From: Eledone cirrhosa
Taxonomy: Eukaryota
Reading direction: 5' to 3'
Assembly (NCBI GenBank): GCA_964016885.1
Contig: OZ024743.1
Location: 336,536,001-336,600,000 of the forward strand
Length of the DNA: 64,000 nt
This document shows, piece by piece, positions 17,441 through 30,247 of the stretch. The position numbers were made by a program, and so were the translations under genes. Under the pieces are notes generated by a model. The model was not told where the DNA came from. It saw only the letters and a program-made list of their open reading frames with translations, and made no database searches. Each line of letters begins with the position of its first letter. The stretch's first letter is position 1.

Positions 17441-18281
17441 AATTTGGAGATAATTATAAAGAATTAGTATATCTACCAACATATGTATACAGATGCATAC
17501 CTATGTTAGCAAATATATATGTTTTGTCTTAGTAACTTTGTGGTTCTATGCAAGGGGATGCAGAACAATTATATGAAAGACAGATATGGAGTGAAATTTT
17601 AGTAAGTCAATTTTCATAACTTTCTTATTTACGTCTTTCATATAATTGTTCTGCATCCTCTTGCATAGAACCACAAAGTTTCTAAGACAAAACATATATA
17701 TTTGCTAACATAGGTATGCATCTGTATACATATGTTGGTAGATATACTAATTCTTTATAATTATCTCCAAATTATTTGTTGAGCAAAACTTGCCGAAATC
17801 ACTACTGTGATTAATAGTAGTGGCTAGGCTCTGTCTTAATAGCACCCCCACTCCTAGCTGATTAACCTCAGTGTCACGTGATTGATTCTTTTGAATTTGC
17901 TACTTGACCAAGTAGGCAGTGAATTTTTCAATGTCTTGGAATCTAGCCCCCGCTCGCTTTTTTCCATCCACTGAATTATTTTTATATAAGTTCCCAGTGT
18001 CCCCGCATTGCCTGGAAGCTTAGATGAGAATAGACTCCCTGATGACGTAAGGCTTCTCTATGGATACGCTCCGTAACCATATTTATCCCCTTACAGAAAC
18101 TAATTAGTTGGAGTGAAATTTTAGTAAGTAAGTCAATTTTCATAACTTTCTTATTTACGTCTTTCATATAATTGTTCTGCATCCCCTTGCATAGAACCAC
18201 AAAGTTACTAAGACAAAACATATATATTTGCTAACATAGGTATGCATCTGTATACATATGTTGGTAGATAAACTAATTCTT
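17441..18281 (+). mobile_element. Retrozyme-like non-coding element, family A copy 1
   Basis: Direct repeat 17588-17755 / 18110-18281 (period 522), 5' inverted repeat 17441-17581 / 17632-17772, one HHR and no credible ORF. Confidence 0.75.
18034..18114 (+). ncRNA. Type I hammerhead ribozyme with extended stem II
   Basis: actcc-CTGATGA-c gtaagg...ccttac a-GAAA-ctaattag-TT-ggagt, with palindromic stem III. Confidence 0.75.
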
Positions 18282-18474
18282 TATATATATATATATATAT
18301 ATATATATATATATATATATATATATATATATATATATATATATATATATATATATATATATATATATATATATATATATATATATATATATATATATAT
18401 ATATATATGTATATATATATGTATATATATGTATATATATGTATATATATATATATATATATATATATATATAT

Positions 18475-18670
18475 AACGAAGGAAATGTGGTAAGGAACCA
18501 GGTGGACCATAACGCACCAAAGTACTCAATACTTGAGGTAGTAGAGTGGGTAATAGGAACCAGTAAGAGCCCGACAGCTGAGCTCAAGCCGTTTCGACGG
18601 CTAATTCTGAACTCAGAATTAGCCGTCAAAACGGCTTGAGCTCAGCTGTCGGGGTCTTACTGGTTCCTAT
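18475..18670 (-). repeat. PLE-type terminal fragment with fold-back hairpin, family B copy 1
   Basis: Arms 18553-18610 and 18613-18670, flanked by (TA)n. Homologue at 30247-30440. Confidence 0.75.
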
Positions 18671-19075
18671 ATATATATATATATATATATATATATATAT
18701 ATATATATATATATATATATATATATATATATATATATATATATATATATATATATATATATATATGTATATATATATATATATATATGTATATATATAT
18801 ATATATATATATATATATATATATATATATATATATATTTGTATATATATATATGTATATATATATATATTATATATGTGTATATATATATATATATATA
18901 TATATATATGTATATATATATATATATATATATATATATATATATATATATATATATATATATATATATATATATATATATATACATACATATATATATA
19001 TATATACATATATATATATATATATATACATATATATATATATATATACATATATGAACATATATATATACATAT

Positions 19076-19980
19076 ATGAACCCCCGGATAAACTGTAAAA
19101 CTAGAAACGTAGTCTATAGCATAAGATGTACAGAGGGTACTTGCAGAAACATGACAACAACATACATAGGTGAGACAGCTCGTAGCATAGGTGAAAGGAT
19201 AGACCAACACTGGGGGGAACTAAAAGGACGAAAAAAACGGGTCAGTACTATACGAACATGCTAGACAACAACATGACGGTAACATAGACAACATAGAAAT
19301 TAGAATAATATCTAAACATAGGAATGACCCAGCAGATAGGCAAATCAGAGAGGCCAGTGAAATAGAAATTAGAAGACCAAAGCTAAACAGAAAGAATGAG
19401 TGGAACAACAACAACACCCAAACAAACAACACTGACCTAAGAGAAGTATAAATAAGTAAATAAAATAAAATAAAATAAGATAAATAAATACATACACAAG
19501 CACAATAACAACAAGCACATAAACACACACTAGTCACCCAGCAGACACAACACTATACACACTAGTCACACAGCACACATAACACTATACACACACGCAA
19601 ACGCATGCGCAAAGAAGACAAAATAAAATAAGATAAACAAACAAGCAAATAAATAAATAAATATATAGACAGACTGAATAAAAAATGGCGTAGACATACG
19701 ACACAACAGGAGGAACAAAGAATATAACACCACTGACGATGTTGCAGATGTGCAACGAAAGATTTATGTAAATTATGTAAACCATATATATGTGTTTGTG
19801 TCTATATTGTATCTGTATTATTTTTGACCGTCGGTCAGTCAATGGCAACATTGAGGACCGAGTAAGTTAGATCGCAGATATAAAAGACAGCGAGAAGCGA
19901 AAACCAACCAAACAGTGAGTGTGTTCTGTTATTAATTCTGGCAATATTACGCAAATATGACCCTCCCCAAGTATAACAAT
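19076..19980 (+). mobile_element. PLE 3' fragment: GIY-YIG endonuclease and 3' UTR
   Basis: NVVYSIRC...[12 protein letters not shown]...RQIREASEI..PKLNRKNEW. Degenerate HHR CTGACGA-tgttgcagatgtgcaac-GAAA at 19733-19760. Confidence 0.85.
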
Positions 19981-20062
19981 ATATATATATATATATATAT
20001 TTATTATAAAAATTATAAAAAATAAACCAAAGAAGCCTTCAATACATCAAAAGTCTTTATTA

Positions 20063-20100
20063 GCCAACAATGTTTCGTCCTATTAAGGACTCATCAGGAC
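20063..20100 (-). ncRNA. Minimal type I hammerhead ribozyme
   Basis: gtc-CTGATGA-gtcc ttaata ggac-GAAA-cattg-TT-ggc. Confidence 0.8.
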
Positions 20101-27537: not shown

Positions 27538-28207
27538 AATACAAATATAAATTATCGAGAATCGCATTTCGGCCCACGAAATAACGAAAAACAACCTCAA
27601 TGATGTGTGGCAAGTGCTCAATGATTCAGATGAACCAGAGCTATAACAAACGTTAAAGGCCGAACACACTGAGACGATGGTTAAACAATCATCCGCATAG
27701 CCAAAAAAAACGATCAAGTAATTCGGGTCAAACAAATAAAAAATATCTGTGATTGATAATTTACCCGGACCCCTGGAAGGTTGGTAAAATCCAGCATTTG
27801 GGTTTCTGCGGCTCCTAAATCAAGTACTGTCCGCTTACTTAAATAATGTTAGGCTTCTGGTAAGATGATTGAACAAGGAAGCCGCTTTCTCAACAGGTTT
27901 TAGTTCAATATTAATACAAGGACTAACTATTGCTGACCCCAGGTGGGGATCGGCAAGGGAGGCAACCCCTATATCAGGCGAATGAATTCAGTTGAGTATA
28001 TTATTGCAAGAATGCAGTTCTCAACAGAGTTCTCAACAGAGTTCTCAACAGAAGGTTTAAAGTTAACATAAGCTATTCATCAGTCAATAGAATCAACTAA
28101 AAAATCAAGAAAATTAACTGGTCAATAGCTAGAGTCTGGAGATTAATACAAATATAAATTATCGAGAATCGCATTTCGGCCCACGAAATAACGAAAAATA
28201 ACCTCCG
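27538..28207. mobile_element. Non-coding element bounded by ~60-bp direct repeats, in (TA)n
   Basis: atacaaatataaattatcgagaatcgcatttcggcccacgaaataacgaaaa at about 27539 and 28146, plus an internal 11-mer (agttctcaaca-g) x3. Confidence 0.55.
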
Positions 28208-28304
28208 ATATATATATATATATATATATATATATATATATATATATATATATATATATGTATGTATATATATATATGTGTGTATATATATATATATATA
28301 TATA

Positions 28305-28760
28305 TACGATATTAAATAAATGGAAACTATATTTATAAAACCATATTTATTTCATTATATATATTTCAGGGATATCATATTAAAAATATGTTATGCCTTC
28401 TTCAGACAAAATACAATATAAACAGTCTTATAAATAGATAGATTCGACATACCTTTCAACTTCGACTTCTATTTGAAAAGTTGATTTGGTAAATCAACTT
28501 TTCAAATAGAAGTCGAAGTTGAAAGGTATGTCGAATCTATCTATTTATAAGACTGTTTATATTGTATTTTGTCTGAAGAAGGCATAACATATTTTTAATA
28601 TGATATCCCTGAAATATATATAATGAAATAAATATGGTTTTATAAATATAGTTTCCATTTATTTAATATCGTAAATATACTCCAAATACTTGTTGAGTGC
28701 TTTTATATCAGTTATAAATATTTACTCGTTGTTAACCCAACAATTTAAATAAAACTTTGC
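28305..28760 (+). repeat. pLTR fragment forming a 183-bp-arm palindrome, HHR in each arm
   Basis: Arms 28305-28487 and 28491-28673. ttttgt-CTGAAGA-agg...cct-GAAA-tatata-TA-atgaaa at 28567-28628, mirrored at 28350-28411. Confidence 0.8.
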
Positions 28761-28784
28761 ATATATATATATATATATATATAT

Positions 28785-29359
28785 TTATTCAGGTTTGAGG
28801 TTCACCACTGTATAGAGCTGGTCTATTCCGTATGGTCAATCGTAATGCAATAATATAGAGAGTACTCAACGTAAAGCAGTTCAACCGTCTTTGTTTTTGT
28901 AGTTGGTGGTGCTATTACGGAGTTAAATATTATAATGAAATGACAGGAGGCTGGATTTGTGTAAATCCTTGAAAGGTTTATTATACTATGATCATTTCAA
29001 TGACCGGGTTCCGTATGAATCCGGTGATATCATCAGGTATTCGAAATATAATACGTGAATGTAATAGGTAAAATCCATGGGGCTGAAAATCGAGACCCGA
29101 GGGCGACCGCTATTCTGTTCCTTCAGCCTCAGCCGGTCGCCGCTCCAGGGCGACCGGCTGAGGCTGAAGGAACAGAATAGCGGTCGCCCTCGGGTCTCGA
29201 TTTTCAGCCCCATGGATTTTACCTATTACATTCACGTATTATATTTCGAATACCTGATGATATCACCGGATTCATACGGAACCCGGTCATTGAAATGATC
29301 ATAGTATAATAAACCTTTCAAGGATTTACACAAATCCAGCCTCCTGTCATTTCATTATA
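28785..29359 (-). repeat. pLTR fragment forming a 211-bp-arm palindrome, HHR in each arm
   Basis: Arms 28931-29141 and 29149-29359. atac-CTGATGA-..accgg..ccggt..-GAAA-tgatca-TA-gtat at about 29250-29307, mirrored at about 28983-29040. Confidence 0.85.
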
Positions 29360-29563
29360 TATATATATATATATATATATATATATATATATATATATAT
29401 ATATATATATATATATATATATATATATATATATATATATATATATATATATATGTATATATATATATATGTGTATATATATGTATATATATACATATAT
29501 ATACATATATATGTATATATATGTATATATAGATATATGTATATATATATATGTATATCTATA

Positions 29564-30247
29564 TAAGTAAGTTGATTTTTAAAAATGTTCTTATTTTACG
29601 TCTTTCATATAATTGTTCTGCATCCCCCTGCATAGAACCACCTAGGTACTATGACATAACTTATGTATTTGCTAGCATGAGTGTACATCTGTACACATAT
29701 GTTGGTAAATATACTAATTCTCTATATTTATCTCCAAATTATTTATTTGTTGAGCAAACTTGCCAAATCCACTGCTAATTCATTGTAGTGGTAGTAGGCT
29801 CTTGTCATAATAGCACCCCACTCCTACCGACTAGCCTCAGTGTCACGTGATTGATTCTTTAGAATCTGCCACTTGACCAGAGACAGTGAACTTTTTCAGT
29901 GCTATGGAATTCAGTCCCCGCTAGCTGATCCATCCACTGAATTATTATTTTTATATGAGTTCCTAGTGTCCGCGCATCGCCTGGGAACTTAGCTGAGAAT
30001 AGACTCCCTGATGACGTAATGAATTCTCGATAGTTACATTGCGTAACTATATTTATCCCATTACAGAAACTAATTAGTTGGAGTGAAAATTTTAGTAAGT
30101 TGATTTTTAAAAATTTTCTTATTTTACATCTTTCATATAATTGTTCTGCATCCCCCTGCATAGAACCACCTAGGTACTATGACATAACTTATGTATTTGC
30201 TAGCATTAGTGTACATCTGTACGCATATGTTGGTAAATATACTAATT
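29564..30247 (+). mobile_element. Retrozyme-like element, family A copy 2
   Basis: Diverged homologue of 17588-18281, with a direct repeat at about 29564-29718 / 30094-30247. Confidence 0.75.
30003..30084 (+). ncRNA. Type I hammerhead ribozyme with extended stem II
   Basis: actcc-CTGATGA-c gtaatg...cattac a-GAAA-ctaattag-TT-ggagt. Confidence 0.75.

Follow-up and report, generated by a model that had tools for sequence, protein, structure and literature searches.

A very abundant retrozyme-type family in Eledone cirrhosa with an extended stem II hammerhead and the insertion marks of Penelope-like elements

The window analysed here is a 64,000-nucleotide stretch of the genome of Eledone cirrhosa (assembly GCA_964016885.1, contig OZ024743.1, positions 336,536,001 to 336,600,000 of the forward strand), which holds two copies of a small repeat, termed family A, each with a hammerhead ribozyme. 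The family proved to be a real, selected and very abundant retrozyme-type element that bears the insertion marks of Penelope-like elements (PLEs). Quite likely, it is a retrozyme that is non-autonomous and depends for its copying on a Penelope reverse transcriptase (RT) of the Hydra clade, the template being an RNA with predicted self-cleavage as a dimer and probable circularisation. New here are a probable, covarying pseudoknot in the hammerhead, a predicted switch by which the ribozyme would be off as a monomer and on as a dimer, and CT tails that are linked to the template.

An original prediction, made from the letters of the window alone, had recognised the two copies and proposed a non-coding unit of some 520–530 nt. 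The copies are 82.9% identical over 694 nt, and the period of the predicted cleavage site is 522 nt in copy 1 (17588 to 18110) and 528 nt in copy 2; each copy spans about 1.3 units, with only one complete hammerhead. The resemblance is more than chance and the family had been undercounted: in the 3.0 Gb of genome searched, the 21-nt 3' core of the hammerhead, used as an exact probe, was found 9,320 times, versus 0 for a control sequence run alongside. Hairpin A, described below, was found 10,367 times. The copy number of the repeat is about 9,000–10,000, and 649 further hits came from divergent copies whose stem I is longer. A sample of 130 loci, 60 taken by similarity and 70 in position order on contig 1, with the last positions of the core hit list left out, yielded 61 full monomers of 520-571 nt, which fell into 8 clusters at 73-92% identity; there are at least 8 subfamilies. 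The units have no open reading frame (ORF), the longest stop-free stretches being 51-109 aa. They bear one hammerhead each and occur in tandem copies, dispersed and at high copy number. Across 8 subfamily representatives, 18 of the 124 pairs predicted over the whole unit had changed on both sides, and the whole unit is therefore a folded RNA, which upholds the claim of a structured type I hammerhead repeat family. A check for A-to-I editing scars saw none (A>G 36 versus T>C 52, p 0.67). Older sister families (L203, L204-L206, L230-L245, L210-L214, L217) have different sequences and the same layout, with the extra base, the long stem II and an A ahead of GAAA.

The hammerhead of family A has the core CUGANGA, GAAA, NUH and three stems, and is open at stem I, as is characteristic of type I. 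As had been read from the window, the core is identical in both copies (Table 1), stem II is GTAAGG/CCTTAC in copy 1 and GTAATG/CATTAC in copy 2, and the palindrome ACTAATTAGT forms stem III, with T and GGAGT coming after it. Stem II was counted in 155 distinct complete hammerhead copies and consists of a 6-bp helix (IIa), a pyrimidine internal loop and one hairpin (IIb), some 45 nt in all. The pairs of stem IIa are kept in 151-154 copies per position, and the covariation seen between the window copies extends through the family with compensatory changes: position 2 is U-A in 108 copies, C-G in 36 and A-U in 9, with four pair types on 18 subfamily representatives, and position 5 is U-A in 82 and G-C in 69. 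Hairpin IIb has pairs of the same kind (U-A 112/C-G 41 and A-U 76/G-C 50/G-U 23). An additional hairpin within stem II had also been described; it is present as described in both window copies, but its upper part in copy 1 (TACG/CGTA) is often broken in sister copies. The proposal that stem II is branched had to be given up, as all 155 folds ran from helix through internal loop to a single hairpin loop with no multiway junction, and stem II is extended instead.

What is unusual in the fold, as modelled, is the pairing of this internal loop with the leader of stem I, together with the mismatched base of stem II. A C (an A in one subfamily) lies between A9 and the stem II helix and an A precedes G12, the latter fixed, at >99% of copies (9,320 versus 62 non-A copies genome-wide). 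Positions 10.1-11.1 are paired in 3/155 copies and are C·A in 147/155; alternatively, the stem can be read as starting with a G-C pair (149/155) that has an unpaired base on either side. The hammerheads of PLEs are reported to have an extra base after A9 (PMC4209133). In 138/155 copies the UUCUC on the 5' side of the internal loop can pair with a GAGAA ahead of stem I. In one subfamily group, a hand count of the first 100 of 649 hits gave a middle pair of G-C 71 times, G-U 5, A-U 23 and A·C once, where about 17 A·C were expected if the two sides were independent, and the fetched loci of that group gave A-U 15, G-C 8, G-U 3 and A·C 0. In a sister family the leader is AAGAAU in 14/16 loci, facing an AUUCUU that was fixed by the search pattern. 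Judged from these sequences, leader and loop likely form a pseudoknot with compensatory changes, and their covariation fits the base-paired stem I/stem II contacts described in PMC3088659. When 17950-18180 was searched against Rfam at E up to 10, none of the 5 matches was to a hammerhead family; the miRNA and snoRNA matches were rejected as hairpin or microsatellite artefacts below gathering scores.

The hammerhead had been thought to act as a dimer, and energy models support this as a prediction. The lone motif is predicted to fold inactive, as a rod in which the core is paired with loop III (-20.4 versus -17.9 kcal/mol for the active form), and two copies are predicted to be active, since their unconstrained fold is a double hammerhead in type and reaches -50.4 kcal/mol, as against 2 x -20.4 for two lone motifs. 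Dimer-cleaving PLE hammerheads were reportedly described by Lunse et al. in 2017, and that work may bear on the novelty of the fold.

Mobilisation of the family by PLEs, as had been suggested, is supported by two fixed ends, by two-armed insertions that combine them and by start hairpins of the PLE type. The ends were tallied on 198 distinct arms and 79 two-armed, head-to-head insertions. Arms end at site A (unit positions 52-58) in 88 cases, at site B (165-178) in 96 and elsewhere in 14. The two-armed insertions are A+B in 66 cases, A+A in 1 and B+B in 0, with an odd end in the other 12, which makes 66 of the 67 with canonical ends A+B (32/33 in the position-ordered subset). Sites A and B each lie a few bases 5' of a hairpin with a 2-nt 3' bulge, and the same hairpin type stands just behind the ends of the coding PLE of the window (20027-24763) and of three other families. 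A TA run lies within 12 nt of 85/88 A ends and 72/96 B ends, with (CT)n coming first in most of the remainder, and the inner junctions of head-to-head insertions overlap by at least 1 nt in 51/79. The pattern is the inverted, truncated arm of PLE insertions with a tail, here of 115 nt, at one end only, which is typical of PLEs (10.1101/2021.04.23.441226, PMC3846280). A purified PLE protein, modelled as a dimer, nicks both target strands and extends them from two internal RNA sites (PMC11167929). Run-off at the cut site was not supported as the main source of 5' ends, only 6/198 lying at most 3 nt from it; the 5' ends do cluster near the hammerhead, but the loci had been chosen for containing one. 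Recurrent 5' ends at position 13 (7/198) and position 29 (5/198) possibly reflect TA microhomology or a transcript start.

The microsatellite tails at site B track the template. Where the template reads UCUCU before site B, 28/34 B ends bear (CT)4-29 ahead of the TA run, and where it reads UCUUU, 0/43 are CT-tailed; internal passes kept (CT)2 in 26/26, and 425 CT-tailed ends were found genome-wide. Slippage at initiation is known for some LINEs (long interspersed nuclear elements) and for telomerase, and the tails of family A suggest reiterative copying at initiation; on balance, the CT repeats were probably newly synthesised by the enzyme. It is rather doubtful, if worth serious attention, that the (CT)n and (TA)n runs were instead pre-existing targets joined via microhomology, or products of later polymerase slippage, to which the RT added nothing. 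Hydra elements have been reported to target (TA)n (PMC8557442), 5% of TA runs in the DNA sampled adjoin a CT run (128/2,502, the family's own ends included), and insertion L021 lies within a (GATA)n run with no TA added. Yet the far side is plain TA in 18/22 CT-tailed two-armed insertions and there are few TA-CT-TA triples (8 in 1.13 Mb, where TA runs number 2,502), which together are evidence against a pre-existing target; the far side also lacks CT in 23 of 30 CT-tailed insertions, a set that overlaps the 22, and one insertion (L045) has outward-facing CT tails at both ends. Against generic slippage, the (TC)3 beside a long (AT)n at site A was unexpanded in 10/10 ends. The same failure of UCUCU to expand at site A counts against synthesis by the enzyme too, as do the CT/AG on the far side of 7/30 CT-tailed loci and the UCUUU template at 2/30. 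At 38700-38933 of the window, the end of another PLE family is followed by (TC)14(TA)13, and its internal copy has UUCUAUAUA ahead of a start hairpin identical in kind; this is a second case of a template-linked CT tail. Two small hammerhead families with a mismatched stem II base lie at 34262, 49046 (-) and 57590, and at 34699, 50801 and 57931 (-), and one copy of these terminates in (CT)28(AT)12.

The arms of an insertion also speak of their template. At sites polymorphic between subfamilies, opposite arms agree 363 times and disagree 26 (166 expected), and passes within one arm agree 336 times and disagree 17 (153 expected). Arms longer than 560 nt make up 35/103 of those in position order, and the ribozyme junction is read through within insertions. 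In the extreme case, L246 (G000:C1:170795500-170804500), one arm has 9 hammerheads and 8 complete 521-nt units with one differing site; this long arm is closed by site B and the short arm terminates at site A. An RNA circle would be a simple account of the shared haplotypes, the long arms and the few ends at the cut site, and is somewhat favoured here as the template, with the reservation that the haplotypes and long arms equally fit a multimeric linear transcript. The family may, though this seems unlikely, be a non-autonomous PLE derivative copied from uncleaved linear multimers, with a slow or protein-dependent hammerhead and no need of a circle. The mismatched base of stem II, the lack of clustering of 5' ends at the cut site and the haplotype sharing, which fits a homogeneous tandem source, are in keeping with this, as is the finding in PMC11167929 that the main substrate was unprocessed RNA and that ribozyme mutants inserted equally well. 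Most insertions total only 1-3 units, however, and arms longer than one unit are numerous; if linear RNAs were copied and truncated at the 5' end, the family would therefore shrink unless templates were re-used. Subfamilies at 73-92% identity also retain the core, the palindrome and the pseudoknot, which likewise counts against the linear reading.

The frameshifted PLE in the window exemplifies the probable mobilising machinery and need not be the partner of family A. The ORFs of the PLEs in the window show RWR, DNT, CxCX5C, CxxC and CxH, the Hydra motifs given in section 11 of PMC8557442; Pfam at its cut-offs named none of 8 PLE fragments, and the hammerheads in the pseudo-long terminal repeats (pLTRs) of the frameshifted PLE matched Rfam Hammerhead_1 and HH9 below the gathering score. 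The wider regions 20027-25314 and 27085-27364 hold this Hydra-type PLE and a related subfamily, with two different ends seen. When 8 ORF fragments were used as queries on flanks of 1.5-3.5 kb, 0/323 arms were joined directly to an upstream PLE ORF on the same strand, and no linked ORF was seen at 17 related long-stem hammerhead loci or at 16 sister-family loci. That the unit is merely the pLTR of a coding PLE with rare ORF-bearing copies is very improbable. In its favour, the family ends as PLEs do and has their start hairpins, a portion of the unit is joined to an endonuclease fragment at one locus (L226), and the ORF search was limited to those queries and flanks; against it, ORF-free units run head to tail with up to 9 hammerheads in a row, the sole case with an upstream ORF (L176) had an intervening inverted arm, and the sequence past site B is structured and non-coding. 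The fusion at L226:700-1300 is in sense, and may be a template switch or a nested insertion.

Copying of a retrozyme RNA by a Hydra-clade Penelope RT would proceed as follows. Tandem copies would be transcribed, and two hammerheads would join through their palindromic stems III and cleave at GUU, while the leader/loop II pseudoknot docked stems I and II in the dimer. The monomer RNA would be ligated into a circle, which the inactive rod of the lone motif would shield. A dimer of the PLE protein would then bind the two bulged hairpins and nick an AT-rich target, mostly (TA)n, on both strands, and reverse transcription would begin at site A on one strand and at site B on the other, where the enzyme would often re-copy a 2-nt template repeat before becoming processive and so leave (CT)n. 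The two cDNAs, often longer than one unit, would be joined head to head via short overlaps. The full form of this picture, in which a PLE dimer grips one circular ribozyme RNA at its twin hairpins, primes the two strands of a break at different sites, stutters on the first template bases like telomerase and writes microsatellites that later copies target, while the circle is protected as a pseudoknotted hammerhead active only as a dimer, is put forward tentatively, its odds being a little short of even.

A number of observations pull the other way. The C·A (A·A in one subfamily) replaces a G10.1-C11.1 pair that is usually conserved, and the only precedent found is a U·U mismatch reported at that place (PMC7229834, PMC3088659). 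The pseudoknot covariation reflects few independent events, and in energy models the leader can pair instead with a U-tract behind stem I. Rare changes acquired after insertion number 6/689 in the core and 352/26,778 elsewhere, so the core is not spared, and 8/9 predicted Xenopus retrozymes were uncleaved in vitro (10.64898/2026.07.22.740005). Two inverted B+B pairs stand among the 100 matches listed genome-wide. In PMC11167929 the two strands shared their start sites, unlike the A+B rule of family A, and ribozyme cleavage was dispensable for insertion. A clean empty target site was sought for 97 insertions and none was found, the hits being TA tails of other elements; and the 8 ORF-fragment queries found no autonomous element with homologous sequence.

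Table 1. Positions in the window of the family A copies, their parts and the coding PLE.
Feature	Position	Strand	Remark
Insertion 1, inverted arm	17437..17581	-	Unit positions 46-190
Insertion 1, forward arm	17588..18285	+	Full 522-nt unit from the predicted cleavage site, plus positions 1-172
Site A and start hairpin A region	17640..17671	+	Site at unit position ~57, 17644
Start hairpin A	17648-17671; second pass 18174-18197	+	2-nt 3' bulge
Long covarying hairpin	17696..17747	+	Immediately 5' of site B; alignment columns 134-183
Site B and start hairpin B region	17755..17783	+	Site at unit position ~172, 17759
Start hairpin B	17765-17783	+	2-nt 3' bulge
Leader GAGAA, copy 1	18026..18030	+	5' strand of predicted pseudoknot
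Type I hammerhead, copy 1	18034..18114	+	Predicted cut between 18109 and 18110
Stem I, copy 1	18034-18038/18110-18114	+	
Core, copy 1	18039-18045 and 18096-18099	+	CTGATGA at 18039, GAAA at 18096
Stem II base mismatch, copy 1	C18046·A18095	+	
Stem IIa, copy 1	18047-18052/18089-18094	+	
Loop strand TTCTC, copy 1	18054-18058	+	
Hairpin IIb, copy 1	18059-18081	+	
Palindromic stem III, copy 1	18099-18108	+	
Coding PLE, separate, frameshifted, Hydra-type motifs	20027..24763	-	Canonical hammerhead in pLTRs, same start-hairpin type
Insertion 2, single arm, second subfamily	29564..30247	+	Position 13, across one junction, to position 165
Leader GAGAA, copy 2	29995..29999	+	
Type I hammerhead, copy 2	30003..30084	+	Predicted cut between 30079 and 30080
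Core, copy 2		+	CTGATGA at 30008, GAAA at 30066
Stem IIa, copy 2	30016-30021/30059-30064	+	
Loop strand TTCTC, copy 2	30024-30028	+	
Hairpin IIb, copy 2	30030-30050	+	

In the window itself, (TA)97 follows the forward arm of insertion 1, which terminates at site B, and the outer end of the inverted arm, at unit position 190, is at neither of the usual sites; insertion 2 is directly abutted at unit position 165 by another element. A hairpin-rich element (18476-18670 and 30247-30439) is a common neighbour of both family A copies, and at copy 2 it directly adjoins the truncated 3' end. A near-perfect 434-nt palindrome at 28924-29367 has a hammerhead with a long stem II in each arm (29254 + and 29036 -). 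Elsewhere in the window there are the pol ORF of an LTR (long terminal repeat) retrotransposon (4003-7083), a LINE with a zinc-knuckle ORF1 and RT (10010-13941) and a 658-nt inverted repeat of 99% identity (30555-32021).

As a substrate, family A is small and lacks an ORF; its two start sites are mapped, two of its hairpins are candidates for protein binding, and compensatory variants occur naturally. PLE priming, what the ribozyme does and how PLE tails arise are therefore directly testable with it. Should the CT tails be the work of the enzyme, a relative of telomerase would be seeding microsatellites at hundreds of sites, and new microsatellites would arise from such elements. Rfam misses this hammerhead architecture, and families of this kind are therefore probably undercounted. 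A literature search of titles and the beginnings of abstracts gave no account of this family nor of repeat addition by a PLE.

The closest known systems are the metazoan non-LTR retrozymes (PMC7229834; 10.64898/2026.07.22.740005), which share with family A the AT-rich units that code for nothing and bear a single type I hammerhead, the thousands of copies, the short palindromic stem III, the mostly few tandem units and the proposed mobilisation by PLEs. Both this mobilisation and copying from an RNA circle have been proposed in that literature, though, in the parts available, not shown at the level of insertion ends. The units of family A are longer, at 520-571 nt versus 170-400 nt (PMC7229834), and within the 51-972 given in 10.64898/2026.07.22.740005; the family differs in its stem II of some 45 nt with the internal loop, the predicted leader pseudoknot and the C·A at the base, in its two-armed insertions with fixed ends, and in being known here from DNA alone. 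Inactive self-pairing of the monomer, predicted for family A, is described as uncommon in animal retrozymes (PMC7229834). With the Hydra-clade and other endonuclease-positive (EN+) PLEs (PMC8557442, PMC3846280) the family shares the head-to-head inverted, 5'-truncated arm, the tail at one end, the (TA)n context and the hammerhead near the ends. Unlike them it has no ORF, its tail is about 115 nt versus their 30-40, and no homologous autonomous partner was found with the queries used. Poseidon PAc in vitro (PMC11167929) likewise has two internal start sites downstream of the hammerhead, extension of both strands and AT-rich targets, but it used the same sites on both strands, whereas family A used different ones in 66/67 insertions, each of them just ahead of a separate bulged hairpin; the available part of that paper reports no addition of repeats by Poseidon PAc. 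Compared with the pseudoknotted hammerheads of PMC3088659 and the minimal hammerheads of PLEs (PMC4209133), the predicted contact in family A comes from the internal loop of an extended stem II, there is an extra A before G12 in >99% of copies, and the motif escapes the Rfam hammerhead models. Family A can be modelled as working like the animal non-LTR retrozymes, with self-cleavage and the RNA circle as predictions, and it is a new structural variant of the Penelope-mobilised animal retrozymes, a class that is itself known.

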